A stretch of 64,000 nucleotides of DNA from a virus. Position 1 is the stretch's first letter. Each line of letters starts with the position of its first letter. A program made the position numbers and the translations under genes. The notes below the pieces were generated by a model. That model was not told the origin of the DNA. It did no database searches and saw only the letters and a list, made by a program, of their open reading frames with translations. Of the stretch, positions 7,295 through 51,000 are shown one piece after another. Location: IMG/VR virus record IMGVR_UViG_3300008216_002531, positions 32,001 to 96,000 of that record. One strand, 5' to 3'.

Positions 7295-7409
7295 GAAAGG
7301 ATAGTAATGGCTTGTAAAGGCTTTTCTACATGTTATGGCTATGGCTGTGGTGGTGGCGCCGTAGAGCAAACAGCGGTTGGCTATTCCGACTACCCCATGA
7401 CCACTACCG
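6912..7409 (+). repeat. Exact 18-bp direct repeat ACCCCATGACCACTACCG (6912-6929 and 7392-7409)
   Basis: Read directly; copies are 480 bp apart and encode PMTTT in two different genes. Confidence 0.8.
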
Positions 7410-10400
7410 GTGATTCCGGGCGTGGGCCGCATCCAAAGTGTCAGATTCCGCCCGAAACATTTAGTTTTGAGATTGGCGGATGGCATGGTAGCCTTGAGAT
7501 GGTCGGGGCCATGGGCGAGCTAGATCGTATAAACGTAGGGTGTCAGCACAGTAATTGCTCATGTCCAGACCCAAAGTGCAAGTGCATGAGAACAGATATG
7601 GCGGGTAACACAAATTTTCAAGGGCATATGCAGACAAAGGATTGCCTTGATCAAGGACATTGCATAAACCCGGATATGACAGTTACGGGGTGCTGCGAAG
7701 ATCCTGTCACAGGAGTAAAACCCAATATCAAGACCGGCTTTGGCACGGGGTTGAACCAAGATGAATGCGCGTGTAGAGGGGGTACTTGGAGTTCATGGTG
7801 TGACGCATGGACGCAGGACGAATTAGACACTTGCAATAAATGTGTATCATCTTGCCCTCCTTATAAAATAGGAAACTCAATTGGGTTAGGCTTTGAATAC
7901 AGTCAAGGCTGTTTACAAGCTCCTGTCCCGATAGATGCAGACGGGAATAGATGCTGTTGTTCCGGTGATAGTCCTATATGCGATAGTTGCCCCAACCACT
8001 GTGTGGTATGGCAAGGGCACACAGAGAACACTTGTGGTCCCCCCGTTTTATATTGCGACGAGGATAGTTGCGGGCCGGAAAGAAAGCCGAACAATCTTGG
8101 TTATGGCGTCACTATTCCTTGGGAACTAACTTTAGTTTGTATCGCTCCAGCCAAGACTGCTCATGGCCATCTTCAATATCCTCCAGATTACGGTTCTTGG
8201 CTTTTGCATGTTGTGGCTTGGAGGCCCGTTGAAGACAATGTGCTGGGAACTGAGCCTTGTAGACAGTGGACATTTGGCAATAAACACGGCGTGGCAAGCG
8301 ACGATGGCTTTTTGGATCTGGGATCTGCGTGTAAGGATGGCTCATGGACAATAAGCGTGGATATTCCTGTGCAGCCCGACGAAATAAAAACTAGTTGTGG
8401 TTGTGAATGCCCATGCCGAGAACAAATTACCAATGTATTTGATGGTGAGGAATGCGATTGTTTCAAACCAGATTGCGTTACTGATGGTTTTGAATGTCTT
8501 CATGGTACTAAAGAGCCTCCAGATTGTGATGCTAGTTGTCTGGAGCCTATACCCGCTTGCCCAGCGGCGAATGCTTTATGGGCGGGTTTACAAGCCCCAC
8601 ATCAGTATTGTAATGATGGAAAAGGGAATAAACCCGAACTCATGGGGATGATCGAGAATCTATGTCAGGCGTGTTGCAAACCCTGCAATGAGTTTTGCGA
8701 AGACCAGTGTGTATGTGAAGAAGCACAAGCCAAGGTTGGTCCTTCGTCTATCTGCGGAACAAAAACCCTTAGTAATAGAAATATTGCTGGTCATGGGTGT
8801 TCTAAAGACCCTAAGCCATCTTTCCCCGGCTCGACTAGCACTCCAAAAGAGGGTGACTGTTGTAATCACCACTACGGTACTCCCACAGGCGAGACATCAC
8901 TCCATACGGATTGTATATGGGAAAGTTATTATGAGTGTGGATGTCTTTCGGAAGATGAGGCTAATGGAGGAACAATACAACTTACAATTCAGGCTAATGC
9001 GCAACGTGGCTCGACCATTACCACGCTTTCTCACTATGAAGATCAGAATGGAAACTCAGGCACGGGATTAGGTTTTACCCCAGTAGGCAGTGATACACCC
9101 GGAAAAACAATAAATGAGTGTGGAGCGGTGGATGCCATTTGTGATCTTTCACTTAAACATCCTGATACGGATGGATGTCGGTATACAAAATGGCCAGATC
9201 CATCATGTGAAACTCCGCTTCCTCCCCCCGACATAAGAGAAGGGGTTAGATGTCCTAACTCATTAGTGTGGGAACAACCTACTTATGGATATCAATGCAC
9301 TTTGCCGGGTGGATCTAACAATGGAGCAATGGGTGCAGATTTTCCTGTTAAGCCGGGCCTTTGTCTTAATGCTCGCCCCGAACGTTGGCACTTAAGACCA
9401 CAATTTACTCATCCACATCTTTGGGCTATCTGCCACAAACCCGGCCCCGGAGAACCCGCCCCGCCATGTGATCAACCAGCGGACAGAGATGCTGAGTGTG
9501 TTGAGCATCCAGAAGTTACCAGATTTGTAGCCGACATAGGTAATATTCATGGGACTATAGGAGAGTGTAATATCTATTGCGAGGGATGGTGGGAAGTTGT
9601 AGTAGATTGCTTCAGAGCGTGGACATTAGATTTGTGCGAAGCCTGCTTGGGGGATTGTTGGACTGACGCCAAGATAGTAGGGGCCAAACCTTGGTGTTGT
9701 GGGCATTGTGATGAAGGAGATCATTCTAGCGACTGGGGCTGTGACGGAAAGTGGCCCGGAATTTTCCCATTTTTGTATTATCATCCACCTGAAGATATAT
9801 TTTGTCCGTATGGAGAATATTTTCCAGCTATAAGCTGTCCTACTGTGCCCAATTCTCCAGCAGCTACTATGCTTGGTCAATCAGGACAGTTATATTATCC
9901 CGGTAATATTACTAAAAAGTGGACCTCTTGTTGTGGTAATCAGCCAGCGGGCTGTGAATGCTGTTATCCGTGTGGACACCCAGCCTACGATCCTACCTGT
10001 CGGATAAGAAACTTAATTAGTGGAAATATTTGTGATATTTGTTGGGAGTGCATGTGTAATAATAGTAAGTCCGAGGGAATTAATGCTAATCAAGTTTATA
10101 TGTCCAACGACTGTCCAAACGGTTGCCAGCAACCAGATTGGCCAGCGCCACCTGCTTCTTTGACAACAGGGACTATTCAGTGTAGTAGTGGTATGGATGT
10201 GGTATTTGCTATTGATATCACCGGCAGCATGGTGAGCCAAGTTGAAGCCATTAGAGCAGATGTTGACAGATATGTAAATATTATTGACGAGGCTTCCGAT
10301 GGTAATTACAGGCTTGGCTTGGTAACTTTCAAAGAAGACTCAGCCGATACGATCACGCACACCTCTTTGGGTTATGAAAACGCTATATCTTTTGAGCAAG

Positions 10401-13400
10401 CCCTAGATTCTCTTGAGCCTGCCGGTGGTAGCGGCTCTCTAGCAGAGGCTCATGTCGATGGTGTTCGGTCGATTCTTGATGGAGATGTTGGAAGTTGGAT
10501 CGAGAAGGAAGATCATCGTAAGATTATTATTGTTATGACAGATGTTGAGCCGAATGAGGGTTATGAAGCAGCAGATGTGCAAGCTCAACGCGCTAAAGAG
10601 CAGGGCGTTATAATAAGCTCTATTCTTTTCATTCCTATCTCCGGCGAGGATGAAGACGAGGCTGCACGATCTCTTGAAAATTATGCAACAGTTACCGGTG
10701 GTGTATTTGGAAAATCTACCGCGAGGGGCACTGGGGACGCAATTCAACATTCTCTTTCTATGTGTCAGGGTGTAACCTTAGCCGCCACCTCTTCAGCCGG
10801 TGGGGGCGAACCCACCGGACAGTGCATTCAGGTTGTCCAAGACGGCGGTGGAGAGGTTGCGGGTTGTGGACAATTTATGCAAGAGATGGGAGACATACCA
10901 GAAACGTGTCCTGCCCCCATCTACTGTCCAGAGGGTCTTATTCCGTACAACAAATATGGAGGCGGATATTGCCATGAAGGCGATTTTTGTTGTCAATGCT
11001 TGAGAGAAAAGAGCCATTGGCTCGCCGTACCGGCCACGAGGCGAATTGGCCCCACAACGAACCAGCTTGGTTGGAAGTTAGGAGCACCCGTCCTGTATGA
11101 TATGGCTTGGTATCCTCTTAAAGAAGCCGTGTGTATACTAGAGCCGTGCGGGATGGGAGAATCTGGAGAGGGTGAACAACCCGGTGGTGGCCCCGGAGAG
11201 CCGCCTGTTTTGTATGATAAAGGATCTATAAAAGTTTCTGTGACCCTAATGAGAGAGGGGACTTCTACAGAAGTAGGCGAAGCCTTAAAAATACACGATC
11301 ATCAATCTACAGGAGAAATTATTGGCGTTACTGGAAAGGGACAACCTGTTAAAATTACTTCCAGAATACAGGTTGGTCAACTAGAGATTAACCTAGCTCC
11401 GGGGGATCCTGTTTTTATAGGGATTATGAATGACACCCAAGGCAAGCCGTTTGGCTCTAAGGTGGGGGGCAATAATGCAGCTAATGGGCAATTTGTAGTT
11501 CTTGCTGTTTCTGGAAATGAGTTTACTATAGCGTTACCCGGTGGTGGACCGGTAATAGGCGATGGCGATTGGACGGATGGTGGCACTTGGCATTATTACG
11601 ACCCCAATGATGCTGGTGCTAGTTGCACTGGCCCACATCAACAATGTGCGTATAGTTTTGAGTTTGATCGGGGTGGTGTAAACGTTGGGACTTCTCCAAA
11701 AGTACTTCCCGAAGCTTTGTTTATTGAGTGTGTAGAGGAAGCGTTTGTTGAATGGTCTAATATCTTAGAAAGCCTATGGTCTCCTCGCGCAGATTACACC
11801 GCTACAGGTAGAAGACATGGTAGTTGGGCCAGTGGCGGTTCGTCACCTTCGGATCCTCAACATCCATTCCCCGGTAGTCACAATATAAATCCCGGCCTGA
11901 CCCCCCAAGGATCGCCGGGACCACAAGCCAACAGCCACCAGTTGAGAGCTAGATTTATAAATCTAGGCCATGAACCAGCCATTAGTAATGAGGTTCCTAG
12001 TAATAAAGTAGATCGATATAACGTTGCAGAATGGAGCAGGGCGACCAACTACCCACTGGTTGGTAGGTGTGTTACAAGGCTTCCCGGTGGAGATACAGCG
12101 GGTGGCGTAGTCCCAGAAAGAAGATGGGAAAACATGGCTTCTTGTATAACAAACGGGCATTGTTATGCTAAAGGCTGTTCTGCCAATGATATGAGAGCTA
12201 CCTCTGTGCAGCTATCTAGTAGTAATAAGTGCGAGGAAATGGCTCATGCCGCCAGTGGAACGTCCTACGACAACCCCAAAGACTGCTTATCGACAAAATA
12301 CTATGCATGTCTTACTCACCCAAAAATAGAAGTCCTGCGATGGATTTCAGGGGAAGCGTTTGGGGATCCAGTAGATTCCGACGCCGATGGCGCTGCGGAT
12401 TTGTTTCCAGACGTACCTTTGAGGTGGTATCTAGATCCAAAATATGTGCGAGAAGATATCGGAGACGAAGATTGTTGTAATCACGTAGATGGTTATTGGG
12501 AGGAGATTGAAGGGGACTGGTCTTCTGACTTTGGAAATGGACAGGGGATATTTAATCCCGGTTTTTCAGAATTATTTCCGTGCATACCGAAAAGTGCAGA
12601 GTGTTGTCAAGGCACGGTTTCTTGCGTGTCTCCAGCGGGAGATCATTTTCTCACCCCGACCAACACTTATGTTCCCTCCTCATGTTGTAAAGAGTATGAG
12701 CAGAAATACGGCCAATGTCTTGGTGACTATAATTTAGATGGCATTATGGATGAGATGGCGGGGTGTGACTACGACTGTTGTGGGTTTGGACTCGCTGGCT
12801 GGTGTGTCGACAAAAACGACCCCAATAACATATATTGGTCTACTGCAAGTTGTCCCGGTTGCGGAGGTAAAGACGCTTGCGATAAAGGAAGCGGATTAGC
12901 CCGTCGAGGATGCACAGAAACATTGTCAGTATGCGGCGATGGCAAACCGACAACCGTTGGAACAGATGCTCAAACTTGCGCACCATTGCGATGGCAACAG
13001 ACCCAGAGAGTCCTTAAAAATGATATCGGCACAGCGGGAAGTTTCGAAATAGCATTAAGATTCCCCGGTTCAAATATTGGAGACCCCCTTGAGAGAACTG
13101 ACTGTGATCTTACTGATTCACTCCTGTTTGCAGTAGGGGACTTTATAAAAATTGGCAATGAGTATATGGAGGTTACTTCTTCTAATCTTACCACCAACAA
13201 ACTGTCTGTGACTAGGGGTGTTGGTGGGTTTGGCGCGGATCCGTCGTCATCCTTTCGAACAGGACACTCGGCAGGAGACAGCATTTATCTCTGGCTAAAT
13301 GATACCCCCGGCACAGAAAACTGCGATGATGTTGCCCACTGTGTAGACAATGACGGCTATCTAATTGGCGACGCTAACGAAGGAATTGGTTATTTCCCGA

Positions 13401-15361
13401 TAGATAATAGAAGCTTATATCATCTTTGTCGAGACGGAGATCGACGGTCAGTATATTCTGATACATGTGGTACTGGGGGATCGTGTTGGATAGCGGGAGA
13501 AGCTGGAACAGGATCTTCTAGAGGAGTCCCCATTGGAATATCTAGCCTATATAATAGCGTCTCTTCTAGTGATACGATAATAACCATAACAGAAATTGAC
13601 AACACTGGAAATCTTTTTGTTGACGACGGGAATGATGTTCATAATCCTAGTATTATAGCTACGCCGGAAAAATTTAAGCTGAAGATTGGCGACATTATTA
13701 GAATTGAAGCTGAAAACATGGAAGTTGTTGCGGTTAGAAAAACTTCTGAATTTCACGCTAGTGTTAAAGGTGATTGTACCGCTGACGTTAAACTCAACGG
13801 TTTATTTGGAGCGCCAACCAACGGTGTTCCTGAATGCGAATTTATCGATTGTGATGGGGGTGATCGACAGACCGATTGTAGACATTGGTACAGAAAAGAT
13901 CATGATCAGGCGATTGGTTGGTCAAACTGCATCGGAGCGCCTCTTGGCGACATAGAATGGCCAGACAAGATTGTGTCTCTCTATGAGATAACAGTTAGAA
14001 GAGGAGAAGATGGTACTTCGGCAGTCGATCATGATGCCAATAAATGGGTAAGAAAAAAATACGGCAACGTTATTAATGATTGCAGACAATGTGAAGATAA
14101 TTTGATGGGTACTGCTTATCGACACGAATGGGTCGGAACCGGAACCGCTGGGCCGACTAACCCAGCCGGTTCTATATGGCGTCGTGCCCGATGGTATCCT
14201 AAATTTGATTGGACGGCCAACATTTGGGAGGCTAAGATATCGCTCGACACACCTTTCTATGGGAAGACCGGAGGCGAGTGTTTAGAATGGCCAGAAAAAG
14301 ACGATTGTTGTCCGAGAATTGGTCAGGTAAGAGTAGGGATGGTAAATTGGTACGACGCCCTGAGAGAAAGATGGGCCAATGAAGGCAAGGGGCAGTGTTA
14401 TGATTGTAATACGGGGGTTATTATTGGAAACCAAACTAAATTTGGGCCAAACAGTGTGGAGCTACATGGAGAATGTCTACGGTATAATGAAGACAGGTAT
14501 GATAAACTCTTAATAGGTTCTACGTCTGATTCTCAGGACGATTGCCTTGATTTGAATTGCAACCAGCCATTAAATAGTTGTGGTGGCGTGTGCATAAATA
14601 GCCAAAATCAAGAGATTACGACTTATACCACTGAAGAAGATTGTATATCCAACAATCTAATATGGGCGACTTGGACGTGGAGCGCTTATGTTAATAAAGA
14701 CGTTTGTAATAATGCTGGACACTGTTGGGATTATAGAGATCCCCCGCTAGTTCCCGCAAGTGGAAATCCATTTGCTTGTGGGTATATGGGTGGGATGAAA
14801 TGTATGAGGCAACTCCCAGATGGGGTTTGGGTAAGTTGCTTACCGAGGGCTGGTGCGCCATATGGAAAAGCTAATAATATGATTGGTGTTGATCGTGATC
14901 TTGAGTTAATGTATCCCGAATTGGGCAAAAACTGCGTAGGTTTTCGCCCGCAGGTTGGCGGCAATGTTATTCCGGCGCAACCCGGAGGAGGAGATCCTCC
15001 AGACGCTCCTTCTACTGGTGGGGAGCCGTGCAAATGTATAACAGAAGGTAAAGAAGGCATAGCGGGAGATCTGTATATTGACAGTTCTGTAAAATGGCGC
15101 CCAGACTGGGTTCCAGAATACGATAAGCCGGGAGCTTACAGTATTAAAAGGGTTCTCATGAAACAAATTGGGCATATGTTGGGATTGCCAGCAGGACAGG
15201 ATGTGATGGGTCCAATAACAGGCCCAGCAGACGATGCTGTGCCAATAGGGCGTTCTACTTACAATAAGTTAGTTGAAATGTATGAGCCTAGGTGGTGGAA
15301 TAGGGGTGGAAGAAATGATTACTGGTGGGTTTCTGGAGTATACGCTGGGGATTTTAAGTAG
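7307..15361 (+). CDS. Giant Cys-rich multidomain protein (2684 aa): Cys-rich N-terminus, VWA domain, tail-fibre-type beta modules, degenerate matrixin-like fold; putative virion adhesin/fibre
   Basis: AGGA SD upstream. VWA MIDAS-like DVVFAIDITGSM...RLGLVTF...RKIIIVMTD (~10193-10765). About 10% Cys in the first ~960 aa (hand count ~94). C-terminal GDLYID...KQIGHMLGL...VMGP. Confidence 0.7.
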   Translation: MACKGFSTCYGYGCGGGAVEQTAVGYSDYPMTTTGDSGRGPHPKCQIPPETFSFEIGGWHGSLEMVGAMGELDRINVGCQHSNCSCPDPKCKCMRTDMAGNTNFQGHMQTKDCLDQGHCINPDMTVTGCCEDPVTGVKPNIKTGFGTGLNQDECACRGGTWSSWCDAWTQDELDTCNKCVSSCPPYKIGNSIGLGFEYSQGCLQAPVPIDADGNRCCCSGDSPICDSCPNHCVVWQGHTENTCGPPVLYCDEDSCGPERKPNNLGYGVTIPWELTLVCIAPAKTAHGHLQYPPDYGSWLLHVVAWRPVEDNVLGTEPCRQWTFGNKHGVASDDGFLDLGSACKDGSWTISVDIPVQPDEIKTSCGCECPCREQITNVFDGEECDCFKPDCVTDGFECLHGTKEPPDCDASCLEPIPACPAANALWAGLQAPHQYCNDGKGNKPELMGMIENLCQACCKPCNEFCEDQCVCEEAQAKVGPSSICGTKTLSNRNIAGHGCSKDPKPSFPGSTSTPKEGDCCNHHYGTPTGETSLHTDCIWESYYECGCLSEDEANGGTIQLTIQANAQRGSTITTLSHYEDQNGNSGTGLGFTPVGSDTPGKTINECGAVDAICDLSLKHPDTDGCRYTKWPDPSCETPLPPPDIREGVRCPNSLVWEQPTYGYQCTLPGGSNNGAMGADFPVKPGLCLNARPERWHLRPQFTHPHLWAICHKPGPGEPAPPCDQPADRDAECVEHPEVTRFVADIGNIHGTIGECNIYCEGWWEVVVDCFRAWTLDLCEACLGDCWTDAKIVGAKPWCCGHCDEGDHSSDWGCDGKWPGIFPFLYYHPPEDIFCPYGEYFPAISCPTVPNSPAATMLGQSGQLYYPGNITKKWTSCCGNQPAGCECCYPCGHPAYDPTCRIRNLISGNICDICWECMCNNSKSEGINANQVYMSNDCPNGCQQPDWPAPPASLTTGTIQCSSGMDVVFAIDITGSMVSQVEAIRADVDRYVNIIDEASDGNYRLGLVTFKEDSADTITHTSLGYENAISFEQALDSLEPAGGSGSLAEAHVDGVRSILDGDVGSWIEKEDHRKIIIVMTDVEPNEGYEAADVQAQRAKEQGVIISSILFIPISGEDEDEAARSLENYATVTGGVFGKSTARGTGDAIQHSLSMCQGVTLAATSSAGGGEPTGQCIQVVQDGGGEVAGCGQFMQEMGDIPETCPAPIYCPEGLIPYNKYGGGYCHEGDFCCQCLREKSHWLAVPATRRIGPTTNQLGWKLGAPVLYDMAWYPLKEAVCILEPCGMGESGEGEQPGGGPGEPPVLYDKGSIKVSVTLMREGTSTEVGEALKIHDHQSTGEIIGVTGKGQPVKITSRIQVGQLEINLAPGDPVFIGIMNDTQGKPFGSKVGGNNAANGQFVVLAVSGNEFTIALPGGGPVIGDGDWTDGGTWHYYDPNDAGASCTGPHQQCAYSFEFDRGGVNVGTSPKVLPEALFIECVEEAFVEWSNILESLWSPRADYTATGRRHGSWASGGSSPSDPQHPFPGSHNINPGLTPQGSPGPQANSHQLRARFINLGHEPAISNEVPSNKVDRYNVAEWSRATNYPLVGRCVTRLPGGDTAGGVVPERRWENMASCITNGHCYAKGCSANDMRATSVQLSSSNKCEEMAHAASGTSYDNPKDCLSTKYYACLTHPKIEVLRWISGEAFGDPVDSDADGAADLFPDVPLRWYLDPKYVREDIGDEDCCNHVDGYWEEIEGDWSSDFGNGQGIFNPGFSELFPCIPKSAECCQGTVSCVSPAGDHFLTPTNTYVPSSCCKEYEQKYGQCLGDYNLDGIMDEMAGCDYDCCGFGLAGWCVDKNDPNNIYWSTASCPGCGGKDACDKGSGLARRGCTETLSVCGDGKPTTVGTDAQTCAPLRWQQTQRVLKNDIGTAGSFEIALRFPGSNIGDPLERTDCDLTDSLLFAVGDFIKIGNEYMEVTSSNLTTNKLSVTRGVGGFGADPSSSFRTGHSAGDSIYLWLNDTPGTENCDDVAHCVDNDGYLIGDANEGIGYFPIDNRSLYHLCRDGDRRSVYSDTCGTGGSCWIAGEAGTGSSRGVPIGISSLYNSVSSSDTIITITEIDNTGNLFVDDGNDVHNPSIIATPEKFKLKIGDIIRIEAENMEVVAVRKTSEFHASVKGDCTADVKLNGLFGAPTNGVPECEFIDCDGGDRQTDCRHWYRKDHDQAIGWSNCIGAPLGDIEWPDKIVSLYEITVRRGEDGTSAVDHDANKWVRKKYGNVINDCRQCEDNLMGTAYRHEWVGTGTAGPTNPAGSIWRRARWYPKFDWTANIWEAKISLDTPFYGKTGGECLEWPEKDDCCPRIGQVRVGMVNWYDALRERWANEGKGQCYDCNTGVIIGNQTKFGPNSVELHGECLRYNEDRYDKLLIGSTSDSQDDCLDLNCNQPLNSCGGVCINSQNQEITTYTTEEDCISNNLIWATWTWSAYVNKDVCNNAGHCWDYRDPPLVPASGNPFACGYMGGMKCMRQLPDGVWVSCLPRAGAPYGKANNMIGVDRDLELMYPELGKNCVGFRPQVGGNVIPAQPGGGDPPDAPSTGGEPCKCITEGKEGIAGDLYIDSSVKWRPDWVPEYDKPGAYSIKRVLMKQIGHMLGLPAGQDVMGPITGPADDAVPIGRSTYNKLVEMYEPRWWNRGGRNDYWWVSGVYAGDFK

Positions 15362-15396: not shown

Positions 15397-16008
15397 ATGA
15401 TGCAAAAAAGAACCAAATGTCAGTGTGACATTAATGGGTCTCCTAAACAGTGGTGTCAAAGACATCAATGCTATAAGAACCCTATAGAAATTAGACAGTG
15501 TCAGATATCAATTCCCAACTTTGTGGCGTGGGAGAATTGTCAAGGAGCAGGGCAGAATGAAGACTGTTCTCCTGTTCCTATTGATAAAGACGAAGAGCTA
15601 CCTAATTTGCTAGATTCTTCTTTAGGCAACGCACGTTCATATGTTAATAGAGATCAGGTTGCAGAAGAAGCTAAAAAGGGGTGTTCAAGTTGTGGGAAAA
15701 ACAAGTCCGTAGAGCCTCCCTCTAAAACAACAGACGGGGTATCTTCTATTGAAACGCCGGAACAGAATCTTAACGCTCCCAATTTGATGACTCAGGGTTG
15801 GAGTTTTGCAAAGGCCGTTGGGGCCTATGTTAAAAGCGGAATGAAGAATATAGGTGAAGAAGACTATGCCGAAAGAATGCGCATATGCGATACTTGTGAG
15901 TGGAGATCTGGCGGAAGATGTATGAAATGTGGCTGTTTTATCGACAGAAAGGCCGGTTGGGCTTCAGCAGACTGCCCAATAGGAAAATGGCCGAAAGCGG
16001 GTCGTTAA
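15397..16008 (+). CDS. Cys-rich protein with C-terminal DUF6171-like CxxC...CxxCGC...CPxGKW domain
   Basis: ERMRICDTCEW...RCMKCGCFIDRKA...CPIGKW; additional GCSSCG and N-terminal Cys cluster; GGAGG SD. Confidence 0.65.
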   Translation: MMQKRTKCQCDINGSPKQWCQRHQCYKNPIEIRQCQISIPNFVAWENCQGAGQNEDCSPVPIDKDEELPNLLDSSLGNARSYVNRDQVAEEAKKGCSSCGKNKSVEPPSKTTDGVSSIETPEQNLNAPNLMTQGWSFAKAVGAYVKSGMKNIGEEDYAERMRICDTCEWRSGGRCMKCGCFIDRKAGWASADCPIGKWPKAGR

Positions 16009-17213: not shown

Positions 17214-18107
17214 CTACTCTCTCCAATCAGATTCGTAACCTTGGATTTGCTCTGGAATACTACCATTCTGTTGGTAATCATTCAACTGTCGTAGCATCTT
17301 CTGTGCTGTGTCTCTTGTTACATCGCTCACACTTTCATATTTCTTAGACCCCATATTAACAAACTTACGGACATCAATATCTAGCTGTTTACACTTATTA
17401 TTAACAAAAGTCACTTGTTGATTACTAATAGTATCTTCAGGGTTCCAGTCAGCATTTGTGGTTGTGGATTGAACAATACTAACAATATCCTTTTTGGCTA
17501 ATTCTTCCGCCGCCAAAGCTCGAATCTTCAGGGCTTTTCTTAGCGCGCGCCCCTCTGCTCTAGTACTAGCGGTAGCAACTGGGTGGGCACAAAATAGATC
17601 ATCTGTATTTCCATGCCAAACATCAGCTACTTCTCGAAAGACTTTGTAGGCTCCGGTGTTCATCCAATCAATAATGATCTTGTAAACGACGGTTGCTCTT
17701 CCCGGCTTTCCACTTTCAGTAGCGGGGAATACTTGCTCTGGCCCTGTTTCCACAATAGTTCCAAGCAATAGTTCTGCTACTCGACGCAGTCCTGCGCAAA
17801 CAGGATTACCGTCTATTAGTTCGTTGGGCTGAAAGTGAGACATAACGTAGTCTGCCCATTCAGCAGATACGTAAGATGGGGCCTCTGGATTTAACTGTGC
17901 TTGAAGGGGGCTTTCGTTTTCATAGATTTCATTTTTAACCTCTTCAAACTCTTCGTCCATGTTTACGCGATCTAACATGCTAGTATTTTGTTTATGCAAA
18001 TCTATTAGTTCCTTTTTACTGAGACTATCAATTGCTTCTTTCGATAAACCAATGTCTACCAGATCCTGTTTTAGTTCTAATACTTTGATTTTAGAATAAT
18101 TTACCAT
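17214..18107 (-). CDS. Putative ssDNA-annealing/recombination protein (Rad52/Sak/Erf-like motif)
   Basis: ATASTRAEGRALRKAL...AAEEL resembles the AxTRAxxRAL helix of phage annealing proteins; C-terminal ISNQQ..F helical module. Confidence 0.4.
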   Translation of the reverse strand: MVNYSKIKVLELKQDLVDIGLSKEAIDSLSKKELIDLHKQNTSMLDRVNMDEEFEEVKNEIYENESPLQAQLNPEAPSYVSAEWADYVMSHFQPNELIDGNPVCAGLRRVAELLLGTIVETGPEQVFPATESGKPGRATVVYKIIIDWMNTGAYKVFREVADVWHGNTDDLFCAHPVATASTRAEGRALRKALKIRALAAEELAKKDIVSIVQSTTTNADWNPEDTISNQQVTFVNNKCKQLDIDVRKFVNMGSKKYESVSDVTRDTAQKMLRQLNDYQQNGSIPEQIQGYESDWRE

Positions 18108-18889
18108 TAGGCTTCAATCTCCAAAAACCGTTTTGATTTGTCTGGAAATTGCTTTTCCACGTCTTCCAAAATTTCTACAACTCTTGCTAATAGATCTCTT
18201 TGCTTTTTCCCTGAAAAGTTCTTTGTTATATTCTTAATTCTTAAAACTACATATCCAGATTGTAACAGTAGTCCAGATTTATGAGCGTCAGATTTAATTG
18301 TCTTCTGAAGGTTTTCTTCTCCCCATATTGGAAAGAAGTGCGACGGGCCGTCGACCTCGATGGCAACTTTCGAATCTGGGAGGAACAAATCAATTTCTAG
18401 CTTCTGGTTTGCGACGAGACCCATTTTATGAAATATAACACTTCGTCCGGTTTTTGTCAATCCCTTTCTGAGAAATTTTTCCATTTTCGACCCCTCTTTA
18501 GCAGCCCTTCTGACGGCCTCTGCTGCCGCTCTACGGAGATTGGATCGTTCTTCTTCCGACATACCCTCCCATTGTTTTTTAGCCATTTCAGAGCGGTTTA
18601 GCCGCTCCTCATCGCTCATATGGCTCCAATGAGAAAACATCCCCTCGCTAATTTTGATTTTGTCGGCTTCCGATCTCTCGGTTCCTTTTGTTGGATGTTT
18701 ATGTCGTCCACTTTGGATAGCTGTTGCCTGAGCCTTACTTTTGTCTCGTAGTTTTATTCCGAGCCTAACGAGAGTTCTTCTTACTTTGTTTGGGTATGTT
18801 CCCAGAGATTCAGATATTTCATAAGTACTCTTATTCTTTTTTACATACTCGTCCACAATAAACTTTTCTTGATTTTTAGTCAGAGACAT
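18107..18889 (-). CDS. Free-standing homing-endonuclease-like protein: NUMOD3-like repeats plus Vsr/DUF559-type PD-(D/E)xK nuclease
   Basis: N-terminal HTH; repeats SEADKIKISEGM / SDEERLNRSE / SEEERSNLR; C-terminal EIDLFLP..KVAIEVDGPSHF...GYVVLRI. Confidence 0.7.
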   Translation of the reverse strand: MSLTKNQEKFIVDEYVKKNKSTYEISESLGTYPNKVRRTLVRLGIKLRDKSKAQATAIQSGRHKHPTKGTERSEADKIKISEGMFSHWSHMSDEERLNRSEMAKKQWEGMSEEERSNLRRAAAEAVRRAAKEGSKMEKFLRKGLTKTGRSVIFHKMGLVANQKLEIDLFLPDSKVAIEVDGPSHFFPIWGEENLQKTIKSDAHKSGLLLQSGYVVLRIKNITKNFSGKKQRDLLARVVEILEDVEKQFPDKSKRFLEIEA

Positions 18890-40020: not shown

Positions 40021-40596
40021 CTAAAGTCCTTCCATTAAAAAAGCCAAGTGGATTAACTCGTAACCCTTAGATACATTCTCTTTGTCTGCTAGATCTAAAA
40101 ACTCATTCGTAAACTCTGGGTAAGCCGCATAAAATATGTCTACTAATTTTTCCTCCAGCAACACTTGTTTTTCGTCATTTGGTGGTTTGATTAAATCAAT
40201 AAAAGTTGAGTCAGGACCAAGTTCTTCTCCTTCTACATTGTAGTAGATAATAAACTTCGTCGAGAGTTTTAATCTCTCTGTTTTCATCAGAATGTCTTGA
40301 AAAATAATTATTCTAGAGGCATAGGCAGGACAGTCGATGAATACTGGCTTGGTGCTTTCTGAAGAATAATAATGTACGCCTGAAGGCAGAGGGTCTTCTT
40401 GAATCTGATATATGCAAATAGTTTCTTGTTCGTCTTGATCAACAGTTTTTTTAAGAGGGAAAGTAACAGCGCACCCAATGCCATCAAAATCAGAGGCGAC
40501 GACTTTGACAACATAGTCGTGTTCTTTGAAGAAATTTACGAGCGCCTGATTATCCATCCTGTAACCTATAAAACGCGCAAGGGGCGTTTTTTGCAC
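40021..40596 (-). CDS. Hypothetical protein (191 aa)
   Basis: ORF between dnaE-C and ssb; no recognisable motif. Confidence 0.5.
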   Translation of the reverse strand: MQKTPLARFIGYRMDNQALVNFFKEHDYVVKVVASDFDGIGCAVTFPLKKTVDQDEQETICIYQIQEDPLPSGVHYYSSESTKPVFIDCPAYASRIIIFQDILMKTERLKLSTKFIIYYNVEGEELGPDSTFIDLIKPPNDEKQVLLEEKLVDIFYAAYPEFTNEFLDLADKENVSKGYELIHLAFLMEGL

Positions 40597-42281
40597 TATA
40601 TTTGGGAAACTTTTTGCACAATAAAACCGTCGTCGATCTGGTATCGCCTCTTACCACGAGACAATTCCCCGGAGGACTTTCCGTAAAGCAAAACTGTATT
40701 GCCCTCATACAAAAGCCCTTTGTGTTTTTTCCATTCGTCGCAAAACACAGTCACTGTTTCTAGACATCCGGTATTGTCCTCCACAACCAAGAACCCCATA
40801 GGGCTTCCTTTTGACCGTCCATTTTTTACAACATACTCATTAACATTAGAAACTTGCACTGCTAAAATTATATTACCACGTTTGCCGTCAAAAAACTCTT
40901 TACATGTGGAATTTGACCCGCTCGCATCACAAGAGTCTACTTCGCTGTAGCTTAGCGCTATTCCCAAAGTTTCTTTTTCTATATTGGACACCCACCCCGG
41001 ACTATCTTCCAAGGAATAAGGAGGATTTTTCAATAGCAGAACTAGACTTTCAACAATAGAGTTTCTTGTGGTGTTAAATGTTCCACCTCCATTCTTTTTG
41101 GTGGGAGACAGTTTAGACAAAGCGTCGGCTAGACACTCCCACTCCTCCTGTCTCTCAACCACCCACTCTTTCTCCTTATCTGTTAGTTTCTGCCATGTTT
41201 CAAATTCGTACAACATCCTGCTCCTACTCATGCCAAAATGGGACATGGACCCCACAGACACAAGAGAAACCATTATGTTTTTATTGATTTTATGAGACGT
41301 ATTGACTAAAAATTGATACCATGACCAGTCTGCTATTGGTTTTGATAGACTGCTCTCCACGGAGTCTATTACTTGTATCAATTTTTCCACATGTTTTTCT
41401 CCAACAGATTTTATATCGTTGAATCCAAAGTTTATGACTTTATTTCTAATGCTAAACTTGGAATCCATATTGACGACAGAAGGAGGGGAAACTTGTATGC
41501 CTGATATTTTAGCATCCCTTATTAGATCTCTGACTTCAGACTGGGGATCTTGTTTTCCATTAGCGTAAAATAAATAGTTACAGTAGAAATTTATAGGAAA
41601 ATGGGCCTTGGCGTAGGCTGACCAGTAGGCGCAAACAGCATAAGAAACTGCGTGGCTTTTGTTAAAAGCATACCGGTTGGACTTTTCAATCCATCCAAAA
41701 ATTTCTTCGGTCACTTCGCTAGTAACGATTCCTTTACTAGAGGCTCCTTCTAGGAAAGACTCCTTTACTTCTGACATGAGGCCAGCTTGTTTTTTGCCGA
41801 TAGCTTTTCTCAAGCCGTCTGCTTGTTGCAAATCAAAGCCCGCTATAACCTGAGCTATTTGCATGCTTTGTTCTTGATATACTAGCACCCCTTGAGTAGA
41901 CTTTAGGATAGGCTCCAAGGAATCGTGTAAATATGAAACCTCTTCCGATCCATTTTTTCTGTCTACATAGTGCTGTGTCATTGACTTGCCGTCAATAATA
42001 GCTTTTAGACATCCCGGTCTAATAAGAGCAATAAGAGCGGCTAACTCCTCAATGTTTTTAGGGCGGATTCTTTTTGCCCAAGATTTTCCCAAATTACTTT
42101 CTAGTTGAAATACACCTTTGGTTCTCCCGGTAGATATCAAATCCCAAGTCTTGTCACAATCGTAACCGCATTGGCTGATGTCAAAGCGAGTAGACGGCAA
42201 TCCGGTTTGCGACAACGTGGTCGGGTGATCTGGGTCTAGAACTTCAAAAGAACACCCGCAATCAAATTCGTAGTTTTTCAT
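40596..42281 (-). CDS. dnaE: DNA polymerase III alpha subunit, C-terminal half (fingers, HhH, OB fold)
   Basis: TKGVFQLES, ALIRPG, LVYQEQSMQIA..IAGF...AD.LRKAIGKK, YAFNKSHA..Y, EKETLG, OB fold M.FL..ED.TG. Start probably ATG 42281. Confidence 0.93.
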   Translation of the reverse strand: MKNYEFDCGCSFEVLDPDHPTTLSQTGLPSTRFDISQCGYDCDKTWDLISTGRTKGVFQLESNLGKSWAKRIRPKNIEELAALIALIRPGCLKAIIDGKSMTQHYVDRKNGSEEVSYLHDSLEPILKSTQGVLVYQEQSMQIAQVIAGFDLQQADGLRKAIGKKQAGLMSEVKESFLEGASSKGIVTSEVTEEIFGWIEKSNRYAFNKSHAVSYAVCAYWSAYAKAHFPINFYCNYLFYANGKQDPQSEVRDLIRDAKISGIQVSPPSVVNMDSKFSIRNKVINFGFNDIKSVGEKHVEKLIQVIDSVESSLSKPIADWSWYQFLVNTSHKINKNIMVSLVSVGSMSHFGMSRSRMLYEFETWQKLTDKEKEWVVERQEEWECLADALSKLSPTKKNGGGTFNTTRNSIVESLVLLLKNPPYSLEDSPGWVSNIEKETLGIALSYSEVDSCDASGSNSTCKEFFDGKRGNIILAVQVSNVNEYVVKNGRSKGSPMGFLVVEDNTGCLETVTVFCDEWKKHKGLLYEGNTVLLYGKSSGELSRGKRRYQIDDGFIVQKVSQI

Positions 42282-42942
42282 CGGCCAGAGCCTTTTCAAA
42301 TTTTACCTTGGGAGCAAAATGTCTATACAGCTTAAGAAATTTTATCAGGACAGACGCGGTATCTTTCACGTCTTGCAGAGCGTCGTGCGCATTGTCTTTA
42401 GGCATTCCCATCCAATCTCTAATAGAATCCATGCTGACGCTTCTTATATCTGGATTGTTTTCAGTCCACATGAATACATTATTCATTAAGTCCATACTAT
42501 GGATAGTGTGAAACAACCCCTGCTGGTTTCTTTTTTTATTCATAGGACCGTATTCTCTACATAAACGATTTGCGATAATCATATCGAAATTATTTATATT
42601 GTGTCCGGCGGGTATTGGAGCCGTCCAACTACCCTTTTTATAATTAAACCTGTCTACGAATTTAGTAAATCTATCCCACACCGTTTTTAAATGTGGGGCT
42701 TTTGCTAATTCGGCTCTAGTTTTTCCATTTACAGCTAGGGCCTCTTCTTCTAAGGGGTCTAATCCAGCAGCTACCGCTTTTTCATCCCCTAGTGGCTTGA
42801 TCAGAGATTCAAAATATCCATTAGGTTGTACAGACAGTCTACGACCGTGTATCATTACGGCGGCAATTTGTACTGGTTGAGTTGTCAGTGGGTTTCTACT
42901 GCCTGTTTCAAAATCAAACACACAGATATCATTATAATTCAT
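42262..42942 (-). CDS. DEDDh 3'-5' exonuclease (DnaQ/epsilon-like)
   Basis: VFDFETG (ExoI), GHNINNFD (ExoII), HDALQD (ExoIII); directly upstream of dnaE-C. Confidence 0.9.
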   Translation of the reverse strand: MNYNDICVFDFETGSRNPLTTQPVQIAAVMIHGRRLSVQPNGYFESLIKPLGDEKAVAAGLDPLEEEALAVNGKTRAELAKAPHLKTVWDRFTKFVDRFNYKKGSWTAPIPAGHNINNFDMIIANRLCREYGPMNKKRNQQGLFHTIHSMDLMNNVFMWTENNPDIRSVSMDSIRDWMGMPKDNAHDALQDVKDTASVLIKFLKLYRHFAPKVKFEKALADEKLRI

Positions 42943-46073: not shown

Positions 46074-46852
46074 TTAACCGCTCCTCCCGATTTCATAAAT
46101 TCTGACATATCGCATATAGATGTCTTTTTACCAGAAAACGATAAGGAAAACATATCTGATGGGGTCACAACCGTCTTATTTATTTCAATACTGTTACAAA
46201 GAAAGTCTTGCGCTTGCTCTTCATGAACATTTAATACGTCAAGAACTCCTATTTCATGGCCGATCTCCATTAGCTTTTCCAAAATTCTTTCTTGGCTGAA
46301 CCTAGAAAAGGCTTGTTGATGATAAACAACTCTATTTTTCAAAGGAAGAAAACATGTGTCCAAATGATAGAATCTTGGATCAACTAATTCACAGGACACG
46401 ACATCAACTTTGAGAGTTTTTGAGATAATTTCGTGGGCTTCCGGGTCAGTTCTAAATCCATAGCCCATGAACAGGGTATTTTCAAAAAATAGGGCGTCTC
46501 CCTCTCCCTCAAAGCAAATGTGGTCTGGGATTTCAATTACTCTATAGCCGTGTTTTAGAAACCAATCTTTAAAGAACCACTTCTCGTCTCGTCTTTCCTG
46601 ATGTCTAAAATTTGATAATATCACTGTGTCTCGGTATACTAGTCCTGCGTTTGCGGTAAATACCATGTCGGGGTATCCACGCTCAGGCTCAATAAAGCTC
46701 AGTCTGGCTCCCGTTTTAGACAAAAGATCAACCATTTTCTCCCACTGGGAAAGAGCTAGGGCGGGATCGATATCATTATCAATATCCATCCAAGGATTGA
46801 TTTCGTAGTCTATATTAAAATATGTTGGTTTACACAGTAAAAGATCTGTCAT
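46052..46852 (-). CDS. Amidinotransferase-fold enzyme, similar to the arginine dihydrolase domain of ArgZ/AgrE
   Basis: C.P.YF.IDYEINPWM, PDMVFTANAGL, FEGEGD, GYGFRT, FYHLDTCF, EFMKSGGAVKCLT (catalytic Cys). Start moved to ATG 46852. Confidence 0.85.
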   Translation of the reverse strand: MTDLLLCKPTYFNIDYEINPWMDIDNDIDPALALSQWEKMVDLLSKTGARLSFIEPERGYPDMVFTANAGLVYRDTVILSNFRHQERRDEKWFFKDWFLKHGYRVIEIPDHICFEGEGDALFFENTLFMGYGFRTDPEAHEIISKTLKVDVVSCELVDPRFYHLDTCFLPLKNRVVYHQQAFSRFSQERILEKLMEIGHEIGVLDVLNVHEEQAQDFLCNSIEINKTVVTPSDMFSLSFSGKKTSICDMSEFMKSGGAVKCLTLKL

Positions 46853-48339
46853 TTGCTCCCGGTGCTCATACCTTGTGGAAAGTTCAGAGAGTCTCCATGA
46901 TTGACCGTCCAAGCCACTTCATGAGTAACGGACCTGAATGTACGAGCGGCGCTGGGCTGTCCGTTTCCAGACTTTTTCACCCCTCCAAATCCAAGATGAG
47001 ATTCAGCAGCAATACTGCCGCCATTCCAGTAGCCAAGACCAAAATCACATTCGTTGCGAATGCGTCGAGCAACCTTAAAACTTTCTGTTACTACGCCAAG
47101 AGCAAGCCCATAGTCAGTGTCATTGTAAATCCTAATAGCATTATCAATTGTATCGTAAGGAATAATTGACACATGCGGCCCGAATACTTCTTGCTTAAGA
47201 TATGGAACATCTCTCCACTCCGTTTGATATACCGTGGGTGTTAAAAACAAGCTATCGCCATCTCTCTCTCCCATTAGCAGAACATCCGCCTCTGGGTCCG
47301 CTTCGACCATCTTGTTAAACTCTATGACTCTTTCGAGTTGCTTTTCATTAATAAGAGGGCCGTAGAAGGTGTTGTCGTCGAATGGGTCTCCAGTCTGTAG
47401 ATCACCACTTCTATTGGCAAATTCGTCTGCAAATTTGTTGTATAGAGAACGATGAACAATTAGCCTGCTAGCAGACACACAACGTTGACCAGATAGTTTG
47501 TAAGCACTAGCCAAGCACGCGGCCATTGCCATGTCATAATTCGCATCTTCATGAACAATTACTGCCGATTTACTTCCCATCTCACAAGAACAGGTTTTGT
47601 GCCAGCTTTCCGCACAGACTTTACGAACATGCATTCCTACGTCGGCGCTTCCAGTGAAGCAAATATGATCCACGTCTTCGTGAATTAGATCATCTCCGAC
47701 TTGTCCATCCCCATGAATCATATTGAAAACGCCCGGCGGAAAACCAGCTTCTCTGTAAAGCTCCGCAGTAATCTGGCCAACCCAAGGTACATCCTCGCTC
47801 GGCTTAAGAATTACAGTATTCCCTTCAACAAGAGCAGGAGCAGCGCACCAAAAACCACCAATCGCAAAAGGAAAATTAAAAGGCGCAATGATCGCAACGA
47901 CCCCTTTTGGCTTCCTAAGCATAAACGCATCTTTTTCTGGCAACTCCGAAGCAATCGCTTCACCATAAGGCATCCTCCCTGTACTAAAGGCATACTGAGC
48001 CATGTGCAACGCTTCGTTAACTTCGGCAACAGACTCGTTAAAAACTTTTCCTGTTTCTGTGCTTATAATTTCTGCAATATGGTCTTTGTTTTCTTCGATT
48101 AACTTTGCAACCTTAAGAAAATATTCTGCTCGTTGAAATCTGCTAAGACTTCTCCATTCACCAAAGGCCTTCTTAGCGGACATATAAGCGGTTTCTACGT
48201 CCAGCAGAGATGCTTGCGGAAAAGCCCCCACGATTGTTCCTGTGGCCGGATTAATACTGTCAAAAAGAGACTCTTCGTCTCCATCAATGAATTGACCATC
48301 AATGTAATGTAATCCCTTTACGATTTGATAAGTTGTCAT
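46849..48339 (-). CDS. NAD(P)-dependent aldehyde dehydrogenase (candidate aminoadipate-/glutamate-semialdehyde dehydrogenase)
   Basis: PFNFP, LKPSE, FTGS..VG, EMGSK, SGQRC (catalytic Cys), EVFGP, FGGVKKSGNG. Confidence 0.93.
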   Translation of the reverse strand: MTTYQIVKGLHYIDGQFIDGDEESLFDSINPATGTIVGAFPQASLLDVETAYMSAKKAFGEWRSLSRFQRAEYFLKVAKLIEENKDHIAEIISTETGKVFNESVAEVNEALHMAQYAFSTGRMPYGEAIASELPEKDAFMLRKPKGVVAIIAPFNFPFAIGGFWCAAPALVEGNTVILKPSEDVPWVGQITAELYREAGFPPGVFNMIHGDGQVGDDLIHEDVDHICFTGSADVGMHVRKVCAESWHKTCSCEMGSKSAVIVHEDANYDMAMAACLASAYKLSGQRCVSASRLIVHRSLYNKFADEFANRSGDLQTGDPFDDNTFYGPLINEKQLERVIEFNKMVEADPEADVLLMGERDGDSLFLTPTVYQTEWRDVPYLKQEVFGPHVSIIPYDTIDNAIRIYNDTDYGLALGVVTESFKVARRIRNECDFGLGYWNGGSIAAESHLGFGGVKKSGNGQPSAARTFRSVTHEVAWTVNHGDSLNFPQGMSTGSK

Positions 48340-48860: not shown

Positions 48861-49084
48861 CTATATAGCTTCCTTTTTATATCTACGTACTGTTCTACAG
48901 CTTTGTTAAGATCTTCGTATAATTGACTGAACTTAAATCTATAATCGTCGCAGTCCACTTGATATCGGGCGCCTCGGGCGCCTGAATTGCGCAAGTAGTC
49001 ATTTATGCAGCACAATGACAGTCTATTGCACTCAACTGATGATCCATCTTCTAGCACTCTTGTATAAATATCTGTTTTGGTCAT
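48857..49084 (-). CDS. Hypothetical protein (75 aa)
   Basis: ATGA-coupled to the dnaE-N stop and to the VOC gene. Confidence 0.55.
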   Translation of the reverse strand: MTKTDIYTRVLEDGSSVECNRLSLCCINDYLRNSGARGARYQVDCDDYRFKFSQLYEDLNKAVEQYVDIKRKLYR

Positions 49085-51000
49085 TTGATTATTCCGGTAG
49101 ATAATTGATTAGATACTCCCATGATTTTATCCAGAAAACTGATGCCAAGAATATCAAATTTAACATGGCCCATCGCCTCCAAATCTTGCATCTCCAAACC
49201 CGCGATCTTTTCAGATCCTCTTTTTTCCCTAACCATTGGACACACTTCGCTTAAGTTTTTAGAAGAAATCACTACGCCAGCCGCATGCTTACCTTGAGAT
49301 TTATATGTTCCTTCAAGCCTAATAGCTTGCCCAAACAATCTGCTTAATTCCCCGCTAAGACTGCCATCGTCTTCTATACGACACCATTCTTTAAGTTGTT
49401 CTGGTTGGTTTATCAAAGCCCATCTTATAATAGAAGGGTCTTCCATTTCTTGTAATTGGTCTGAAATTTCTGCTTCAGATGGAATATTTTTGGTGATATA
49501 GTTCATCTCTTCAAAACTGCAAGCGTCGTGTACGCGCAGAACTTCTTTCAGAGATGTGCGACCTTGCATTCGCCCAAGCGTCACCATTTGCCCCACATTC
49601 TCTTTGCCGTATTTTTGACGCATATACTCAATAACGCGCGCTCTTTTTTCGGTGGGGACATCAATATCAATATCTGGAAGAGAAACATGGTCTTCGGTAT
49701 TACGCCCAGCATTGTAAAATCTTTCAAAGATTAGACCGTACTCTATTGGGTCTACCTCTGTTATACCAATCAAGTGTGAAATAAGGCAACCTGCGGCAGA
49801 ACCTCTTCCCGGTCCCGGCAGCCAGCCCTGCTCCCTTACATGGTTTACTATGTCTTGAACTATAAGAAAATATCCTGACAAATTTGCATCCTGTATAACC
49901 GAGAGTTCCTCTTTGATTCTTTCGGCATATAATTTCGAATTAGTTTCTTCTGACGCCTTGCCAGTGTCGGCTATTTTACTTTGCCAGCCATGTCTGCATA
50001 AAGATCGTAAATATTCATCTTCAGACATATTGTCCGGGCAAGAAAATTTAGGGAGCATGGGTTTGCCTAATATGTTGTATTCTTCGCACATATCAGCAAT
50101 TAGCTTGGTGTTGTAGATTTCCTCGTCAGTATTTATAACTTGAATTTCTTCTTCTGAGGGGATGTGATATTTGTTTGAGCAAAAGAAACCGCCTAAGCCA
50201 ACGTCTTCAGAATTGTTAAGCTTTTGCTCTACCTTCTTTAGAGTTGTCCGCATCGCAGAACACAAGAGCACTCTTTGGTCTGGGGCGTCTTCAGAGGAGC
50301 AATAGTGAGAGTCTGCCGTAGCTATACAGGGTATGCCGGTTTTCTTGCTGATATACCTTAAGGCTTCAGCGGTTATTCTTTGGGAGGGACACTGGTCTTG
50401 ATCTATCAATTGTATTTCTAAAAAGAAATTGTCCTTGCCGAAAATGTCTCTATATTTTTCAGCCAGCAGAGTAGTTTTGCTAAGCCAGTCTACATCAATA
50501 TATTGTTTCGCCTCTTCGTAAGTAGCCGCACCATAGGCAGACTTTTTGTCAGCAAATATGATATCTGCAAGTTGGCTTCCTATATGTCCAGAAAAGCTAA
50601 TTAAATTTCCGTCACAGTATTCGGCCAGTGTGTCCAGATCTAATCGTGGCTTGTGGTAAAAGACTTCCTCGTCATTGCTGGCAGAGGTAGCTTCTATCAG
50701 CTTTGTCCAACCCTCTAGATTCTTAGCCAGAACTACCAGATGACTAAGCTTCCTATTGGTTTTATCTTTTACGCAGGGGTCTTGGTCACATAAATAAAAC
50801 TCGCAACCTAAAATGGGTTTTATATTTTTTTCTTTCATCGCCCTGACAAACGAGACGGCCCCTGAGATCGTCCCATGATCGGTCACGGCGCATGCATCGT
50901 ACCCAAGGTTCGAGCAGCGTTCTGCGACCTGTGAGGGCTTCGAGAGACCGTCCAGCAAACTGTAGTGGGTGTGCAAGTGTAGAGGAGTCCAAATTGGCAT
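49081..51000 (-). CDS. dnaE: DNA polymerase III alpha subunit, N-terminal half (PHP, palm, thumb)
   Basis: LHLHTHYSLLDG, TDHG, DSHY, GPGRGSAAG, FERFYN..R, PDIDID, HAAGVVI, KFDILG. Confidence 0.95.
   Translation of the reverse strand: MPIWTPLHLHTHYSLLDGLSKPSQVAERCSNLGYDACAVTDHGTISGAVSFVRAMKEKNIKPILGCEFYLCDQDPCVKDKTNRKLSHLVVLAKNLEGWTKLIEATSASNDEEVFYHKPRLDLDTLAEYCDGNLISFSGHIGSQLADIIFADKKSAYGAATYEEAKQYIDVDWLSKTTLLAEKYRDIFGKDNFFLEIQLIDQDQCPSQRITAEALRYISKKTGIPCIATADSHYCSSEDAPDQRVLLCSAMRTTLKKVEQKLNNSEDVGLGGFFCSNKYHIPSEEEIQVINTDEEIYNTKLIADMCEEYNILGKPMLPKFSCPDNMSEDEYLRSLCRHGWQSKIADTGKASEETNSKLYAERIKEELSVIQDANLSGYFLIVQDIVNHVREQGWLPGPGRGSAAGCLISHLIGITEVDPIEYGLIFERFYNAGRNTEDHVSLPDIDIDVPTEKRARVIEYMRQKYGKENVGQMVTLGRMQGRTSLKEVLRVHDACSFEEMNYITKNIPSEAEISDQLQEMEDPSIIRWALINQPEQLKEWCRIEDDGSLSGELSRLFGQAIRLEGTYKSQGKHAAGVVISSKNLSEVCPMVREKRGSEKIAGLEMQDLEAMGHVKFDILGISFLDKIMGVSNQLSTGIIK

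Follow-up and report, generated by a model that had tools for sequence, protein, structure and literature searches.

A putative split and catalytically degenerate matrixin-type domain in a giant protein of an uncultured marine phage

The DNA analysed here, 64,000 nt of the IMG/VR record IMGVR_UViG_3300008216_002531 (positions 32,001-96,000, hereafter the window), derives from an uncultured marine phage and carries a giant open reading frame (ORF) whose product shows, towards its C terminus, the elements of a matrixin (Peptidase_M10) domain. The initial annotation of this stretch had read six short motifs of the protein as a dead matrixin fold used as a scaffold for large inserts, and we find all six in ORF 7307-15361, at the residues assigned to them and in the correct order: FIECVEEAFVEWSNIL at residues 1472-1487 (the annotated region begins at 11648, which is codon 1448), LRARFINLG, IGQVRVGM at residues 2338-2345, AGDLYIDSSVKW at residues 2586-2597, YSIKRVLMKQIGHMLGLPAGQDVMGP at residues 2611-2636 and YNKLVEMY at residues 2652-2659. 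On balance, and with only slightly more belief than doubt, we lean towards the explanation that a single matrixin-type (MEROPS M10-like) domain, split by a huge nested insert and now catalytically dead, underlies the C-terminal 1,240 residues. The features on which this explanation draws are collected in Table 1.

Table 1. Features of the giant open reading frame and of its matrixin-like region, with positions in the window
Feature	Residues	Window position	Strand	Basis or remark
Giant ORF, 2684 aa, Cys-rich, holding the whole feature	1-2684	7307..15361	+	ORF call
N half of the matrixin-like domain: possible strand I, helix A, strand II, variable loop, strand III	1445-1558	11639..11980	+	hhalign, ESM Atlas, ESMFold2 interface
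Helix A (backing helix), EEAFxEWSxI motif	1470-1491	11714..11779	+	Profile scan, conservation, predicted contact with the active-site helix
Variable Gly/Pro/Ser-rich loop between candidate strands II and III	1496-1540	11792..11926	+	Length variation
LRARFINLG, candidate strand III	1546-1554	11942..11968	+	Joined profile; L006 equivalents in predicted interface
Putative nested insert, ~1,015 aa, at the matrixin strand III-IV S-loop position; Cys-rich and beta modules	1559-2572	11981..15022	+	Length variation; no Pfam family detected
CCPRIGQVRVGMVNW, conserved island within the insert	2334-2348	14306..14350	+	Local conservation peak; predicted N-half interface
C half of the matrixin-like domain: strand IV (CKCITEG), strand V (GDLYID), active-site helix, Met-turn, helix C	2574-2664	15026..15298	+	Pfam, hhalign and MMP-1 match
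Degenerate zinc motif KQIGHMLGLPA in place of HExxHxxGxxH/D	2619-2629	15161..15193	+	Aligned to HEIGHILGLSD (L006, P0009, P0012) and HEIGHAIGLGH (bacterial matrixins)
Met-turn methionine	M2634	15206..15208	+	No variation within the family; same column as the matrixin Met-turn
Conserved aromatic-rich C-terminal tail, past the matrixin domain	2665-2684	15299..15358	+	Conservation

The giant ORF belongs to a small family. Four long homologues with 47-77% identity came from a word-based search, the last 111 residues, run exhaustively through HMMER against 1.84 billion representatives, returned four true relatives only, and a metagenome scan identified six syntenic loci (L001-L006), in each of which the giant ORF is followed by the same two small ORFs. 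A further candidate from the representative search, P0011, is a repeat protein with no relation to the family and was left out; among the relatives retained, P0012 is a fragment and P0010 comprises 255 residues. A scan of a viral contig collection found no relative, and neither blastn nor tblastn gave a match in a cultured-phage collection. The four segments are present and in unchanged order in all seven long proteins, and the ORF is conserved in seven metagenomic relatives with a ratio of nonsynonymous to synonymous substitution rates (dN/dS) of about 0.14-0.21. An assembly chimera was considered and dismissed, the same architecture recurring in seven independent contigs; an intein or other removable element was likewise dismissed, the insert having no Pfam match and the frame being continuous and conserved in all loci.

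At the level of sequence profiles, we show that the C half is homologous to a matrixin-type metzincin, from strands IV-V to helix C. In hhalign, the family alignment of this half matched an alignment of eight bacterial matrixin domains, collected from genomes via PF00413, with 95.2% probability and an E-value of 2.6e-8 over 73 columns (template positions 104-179 of 182), the match beginning at strand V and covering helix C to its end. The Pfam family PF00413 (Peptidase_M10), whose gathering cut-off is 24 bits, matches eight of the nine family members. It scores 25.4 bits (E 1.5e-5), above the cut-off, on the C half of L006; 22.9 bits on L005 (profile positions 82-158 of 159); and 14.6-16 bits (E 0.011-0.031, profile positions 82-124), below the cut-off, on the last 111-184 residues of the window protein alone, while a Pfam scan of the whole giant protein gave no PF00413 match. 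The resemblance of the C-terminal block to Peptidase_M10, which the initial annotation had proposed to check by profile comparison, is borne out by the hhalign match and by the passage of L006 over the Pfam cut-off. The L006 C half also has weaker matches to five other metzincin or zincin families (including M7, M12B, M43 and Met-zincin), and as a query for ordinary matrixins it returned the fragment P0012 alone. Sequence and profile searches of the PDB were marginal, with matrix metalloproteinase 1 (MMP-1) as the best match at E 0.3-0.44.

Within this half, the zinc site of the window protein is degenerate. The profile alignment sets K2619-Q2620-x-x-H2623-x-x-G2626-x-x-A2629 column for column against the matrixin HExxHxxGxxH, and, judged by this alignment, the first zinc-binding histidine, the catalytic glutamate and the third ligand are lost and the Met-turn is retained. 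This agrees with the change from HExxHxxGxxH to KQxxHxxGxxA that had been read from the single sequence, with two zinc ligands and the catalytic glutamate gone and the Met-turn kept. The window protein thus lacks the HExxHxxGxxH (or D) signature of PF00413 and has the Met-turn of the metzincin clan. The same KQIGHMLGLP is found in all relatives down to 47% identity (the KQ clade), and the residue where the third ligand would be, or close to that position, is A, E, N or S/D. In a sister lineage (the HE lineage: L006, P0009 and P0012) the sequence is HEIGHILGLSD and then DIM[TS]P, a complete HExxHxxGxxD with its Met-turn, and P0010 represents a third motif state, YEIGLMLGL. The initial annotation had suggested a search for homologues with an intact HExxH and shorter inserts; these three relatives supply the first, and the second was not found, the shortest insert still measuring 585 residues. 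The cysteine-switch motif PRCG was looked for and is absent. No zinc-dependent proteolysis is predicted for the window protein, and such activity may be possible in the lineage of L006.

Because the dN/dS of the C half within the KQ clade is low (about 0.13, with a range of 0.12-0.17 at a dS of about 0.9-1.1), and because the lysine (AAA or AAG) and glutamine (CAA or CAG) codons of the motif differ synonymously among loci, the domain of the window clade is, by these sequence measures, not decaying: it is a pseudo-enzyme maintained under strong purifying selection. Directly after the matrixin-like domain lies the Trp/Tyr-rich tail NDYWWxSGxYAGDF, which has no matrixin counterpart in hhalign and in which the KQ clade shows no variation at N2670, D2671, Y2672, W2673, W2674, S2676, G2677, G2681, D2682 and F2683.

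Profile comparison also shows the N half to be homologous to matrixins. An alignment of the N part (window residues 1448-1566 and their equivalents) matched the matrixins in hhalign with 83.9% probability (E 7.7e-6), placing the EEAFxEWS helix, in which E1477, E1478, A1479, F1480, E1482 and W1483 are invariant, on matrixin helix A. When the whole 2684-column family profile was compared with the matrixin profile, residues 2583-2662 ranked best and residues 1470-1491 second (score 33), both colinear with the matrixin template, and the third match (13.7) was at the level of noise. These two results uphold the earlier identification of helix A as a matrixin element about 1,100 residues upstream of the C half. 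An in-silico join of the segments, proposed at the same time, pointed in the same direction: the C half alone scored 47.5, the addition of residues 1445-1495 raised the score to 65.7, and that of residues 1540-1558 to 70.9 (E 4e-11, 147 columns, template 13-168 of 169), against a mean of 48.5, a standard deviation of 1.9 and a maximum of 55.1 for 150 joins of random segments. The share of LRARFINLG in this rise is modest, at about 5 score units. Moreover, the three nearest clusters to the N half alone in the ESM Atlas are all Matrixin (PF00413), both for the window protein (scores 0.88/0.86/0.86) and for the 43%-identical L006 (0.85/0.83/0.82), scores that lie below the 0.9 mark and serve as leads only.

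The profile alignment further provides a candidate map of the strands. ESLWSP, directly after helix A, takes the place of strand II, LRARFINLG that of strand III, CKCITEG that of strand IV and GDLYID that of strand V, and the phmmer alignment with MMP-1 concurs on strands IV and V. LRARFINLG, which had initially been taken for strand II, is accordingly moved by one position in the profile alignment. On this strand map, strands II and III would be joined by a variable loop, with 25-76 residues separating helix A from strand III among relatives, and the domain would have a single insertion site in the S-loop. One such site, rather than two, is the arrangement that we favour on this alignment, and the insert that it holds ranges from 585 to 1115 residues among relatives, with cassette-like gaps. 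L002 and P0004 lack residues 1838-2287. In the window (12818-14167) this block includes two beta modules with a GDxIxIxxExMxV ... RG motif; parts of the block are missing from L006, and indels within the insert are cassette-like in their behaviour. The start of the Cys-rich module that follows IGQVRVGM (window ~14351-14620; residues 530-600 of a model of L002) is the only part to which AlphaFold2 gives a predicted local distance difference test (pLDDT) value of 66-85.

A complex prediction suggests that the two halves dock. ESMFold2 was given three pieces of L006, namely N (residues 1195-1282), middle (residues 1833-1900) and C (residues 2140-2264), together with zinc, with a seven-row alignment for each piece and with the N piece as the partner. 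The complex scored 0.74 and the best of three controls 0.11, a pass that may itself reflect likeness to solved matrixin structures, the same likeness being the question under test; contact agreement was at least 26% and the pLDDT of the partner at least 46 in these runs. The mark used for such scores is reached by 58 of 80 solved complexes and by 2 of 110 mismatched pairs. In the predicted complex, helix A residues (piece 30-50) are in contact with the active-site helix (46-61) and with helix C (90-106), and the LLARFINMG strand of L006 (65-76), all of it in the interface, lies against the strand V region (20-36). The confident contacts of the model match what the zincin fold requires. From the profile scores, the language-model likeness and this one complex prediction, we infer that the two halves physically dock into one domain. 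Similarity to metzincins and contacts between N-terminal and C-terminal segments in models, the two points on which the initial annotation had staked its reading, were thus both found.

Several results weigh against one split domain. On the N half alone Pfam finds nothing, and the sequence support for this half comes mainly from one helix of 22-30 columns, its strands being weakly supported. Strand I was not identified, the corresponding stretch showing no conservation between the window protein and L006, and hhalign found no matrixin counterpart for IGQVRVGM (0.3% probability). The homologues from the word-based and HMMER searches include no relative with an uninterrupted domain, and the family, at only about 10 homologues, is too small for coevolution analysis. 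The chains of the ESMFold2 complex have a pLDDT of 45-51, at which the fold of the pieces is uncertain, and AlphaFold2 left the domain unassembled, at a mean pLDDT of 35, in an 807-residue construct of L002 that held all segments and the shortest natural insert and was run with a 13-row alignment; the window C half alone reached a pLDDT of 40.9. The packing of the distant segments into one domain, which the initial annotation had proposed to test by modelling, is in this way supported by the ESMFold2 docking and unsupported by AlphaFold2. With these low-pLDDT models, Foldseek found no match to the C half in the PDB, and the best Z in a wide VIA-align fold search with the 807-residue model was 3.5. 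In addition, the location of the giant protein in the virion is read from gene order. Results of this kind would suit an explanation in which the matrixin remnant is confined to the C-terminal 90-110 residues, packed on unrelated modules next to it, and in which the likeness of helix A is coincidental or a relic of a second, broken copy that does not dock: AlphaFold2 yields no assembled domain, Pfam covers profile positions 82-159 only, one helix and weak strands speak for the N half, and the ESM Atlas scores are leads. We nevertheless consider it improbable that the domain is limited to such a remnant. Helix A is the single non-C-terminal match in 2684 columns, and it is colinear; the gain of the joined profile exceeds the random joins by more than nine standard deviations; two divergent N halves both reach Matrixin clusters out of millions; the complex score of 0.74 stands against 0.11 or less in the controls; and the N and C halves occur together in 7/7 long homologues. 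It is also general knowledge of the fold that a metzincin active-site helix deprived of its backing helix would present an exposed hydrophobic face.

A different division of the same domain turns on IGQVRVGM. As in the initial annotation, LRARFINLG would be strand II, followed by an insert of ~780 residues, and IGQVRVGM would be strand III, followed by a ~230-residue insert in the S-loop and then by strands IV-V and the helices. IGQVRVGM does lie in a conservation peak, with 60% identity to L006 over residues 2330-2349, ESMFold2 puts the equivalent L006 residues (53-63 of the piece) among the confident contacts with the N half, and the top random join happened to include residues 1546-1564 and 2340-2355. 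However, beyond the missing hhalign match, adding the IGQVRVGM segment lowers the joined score from 70.9 to 66.7, and the profile alignment gives strand II to ESLWSP and strand III to LRARFINLG, whose equivalents contact the strand V region, which is more in keeping with strand III at the centre of the sheet than with strand II at its edge. We regard inserts at two loops as unlikely and do not retain IGQVRVGM as matrixin strand III; the region may instead be an added strand or a stand-in for strand I. Far less probable still, to the point that we give it hardly any weight, is the explanation that the whole region is unrelated to metzincins and that its motifs are chance likenesses in a long, compositionally odd protein. 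Such an origin would agree with the single-sequence scores of the window protein, all of which are sub-threshold (14.6-16 bits in Pfam, E 0.44 for phmmer against the PDB), and it is at odds with the Pfam score of L006, which passes the gathering threshold with a full HExxHxxGxxD and Met-turn, with the profile-profile E-value of 2.6e-8 and with the presence of PF00413 in 8/9 members.

Our preferred explanation, a single matrixin-type domain interrupted once, can be put in structural and evolutionary terms. The N half, with helix A, strand II, the loop and strand III, would dock on the C half, with strands IV-V, the active-site helix, the Met-turn and helix C, and ~1,015 residues would exit and return at the S-loop position, at the edge of what was once the substrate cleft. 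The insert would then be a closed loop of Cys-rich and beta modules, its base held by the protease fold. The ancestor was probably an active zinc protease, and the sister lineage keeps the HExxHxxGxxD motif and the Met-turn; in the window lineage, with KQxxHxxGxx[A/E/N], zinc binding and catalysis would have been lost and the domain kept under purifying selection. Its present role would most likely be that of a structural clasp or scaffold, or possibly of a non-cleaving binding module, at the far end of a tail fibre or tip protein. The HE lineage may have an active protease here, one that the inserted modules direct to its target, in analogy to the fibronectin repeats of gelatinases. A more specific scenario is conceivable, and we hold it to be rather doubtful: that of a matrixin clasp in the distal tail protein of a group of deep-sea phages, able to accommodate in its S-loop a nested insert of 600-1,100 residues, several times larger than the domain, with the HE lineage using it as a virion-borne protease that the inserted modules aim at a proteinaceous surface layer of the host, the window lineage as a non-cleaving receptor-binding cleft, and the two lineages together forming a natural enzyme-to-adhesin series. 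The architecture is unusual, and its support is so far computational.

The position and order of the genes suggest that the giant protein belongs to the tail module and is a component of the virion. Its only match in PHROGs is a weak one, to a 'virion structural protein' family (E 0.032), and among its gene neighbours no matches bearing on tail fibre or tip membership were found. The Cys-rich zones of the 2684-residue protein extend up to about residue 950 and over residues 1600-1870 and 2300-2500. A VWA domain at residues 964-1122 is the sole Pfam domain above threshold in the giant protein (window 10196-10672, PF00092, E 2.5e-11); it is confined to the window's protein, all homologues being gapped over residues 942-1167, and from this distribution it looks like a recently acquired cassette. 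The ORF directly 3' of the giant gene (window 15397-16008, +) has a C-terminal match to DUF6171 / phrog_13558 and, together with the next ORF of 237 residues, is syntenic in L003, L004 and L006. Between the tail module and a sugar-modification cluster lies an HNH / homing-endonuclease-like ORF (window 18107-18889, -; phrog_559, E 1e-10).

The other genes of the window include a DnaE-type polymerase (two genes), DnaB, a primase, an HNH endonuclease and the sugar-modification cluster, which is large. The DnaE-type polymerase is split between genes at window 40596-42299 and 49081-51000 (-), about 7 kb apart. One carries the PHP and NTPase domains, the other the finger and HHH domains, and the stretch between them encodes an aldehyde dehydrogenase, a class-III aminotransferase and a saccharopine dehydrogenase. 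The phage aldehyde dehydrogenase (window 46849-48339, -) is 59% identical to a protein from a Chloracidobacterium metagenome-assembled genome (L007) and 30-35% identical to the other 45 bacterial matches.

If the two halves dock, the insertion would be among the largest known in a small enzyme fold, with ~1,000 residues placed within ~160, and, if the assignment is true, the tail-module protein of a phage would be a new setting for the matrixin-type fold. Searches of the literature turned up neither a matrixin described in a phage virion nor an insertion of this kind. The family supplies natural versions of one architecture with an active motif and with a dead one, which allows the passage from protease to scaffold or adhesin to be put to the test, and it leads one to ask if certain marine phages carry a virion metalloprotease that breaches proteinaceous cell envelopes. 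For annotation, it teaches that half-domain Pfam matches at the ends of proteins can conceal split domains.

The closest parallel among known systems is the catalytic domain of matrixins and MMPs (PF00413, MEROPS M10; MMP-1, PDB 966c and 1cge). The window protein shares with it the helix A motif AFxxWS, the stretch of strands IV-V, in which the window pattern is G-x-x-G-I-x-G-D-x-x-x-D, the active-site helix xxxHxxGxxLGL, the methionine of the Met-turn and a helix C ending in Y, and the order of these elements is identical. It differs in that K, Q and A stand where matrixins have two zinc ligands and the catalytic glutamate, in having ~1,015 residues in place of the S-loop with its structural zinc and calcium sites, no PRCG switch and an extra aromatic tail, and in forming part of a phage protein of 2,684 residues. 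A link between metzincins and phages has been described in Listeria monocytogenes, where a small and active secreted metzincin of phage origin is paired with a TIMP-like inhibitor (PMC8235301); going by that description, it too comes from a phage-related element and, unlike the domain in the window, does not appear to sit in a giant tail-module protein. The Asp third ligand of L006, P0009 and P0012 is shared with the snapalysin-type metzincins (PF02031, M7; HExxHxxGxxD), to which L006 has a weak match (E 0.044). Snapalysin, however, is a compact secreted enzyme of ~130 residues with no insert, and the best match of the present family is to M10, not to M7. The gelatinases MMP-2 and MMP-9 carry three fibronectin type II repeats nested in the catalytic domain beside the cleft, where they act as exosites. 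They likewise illustrate a matrixin domain that tolerates nested modules in a loop adjoining the cleft, but their insert measures ~175 residues, sits after strand V and before the active-site helix and leaves the enzyme active, whereas here 585-1115 residues would precede strand IV and the window clade appears dead. Finally, the non-proteolytic ADAMs (ADAM11/22/23) are catalytically dead metzincins used for adhesion. As may be the case for the window clade, they have a metzincin fold that remained under selection after the loss of HExxH and was reused for binding or as a scaffold; they are eukaryotic membrane proteins with an uninterrupted domain, whereas the fold described here would be split and would belong to a phage protein.

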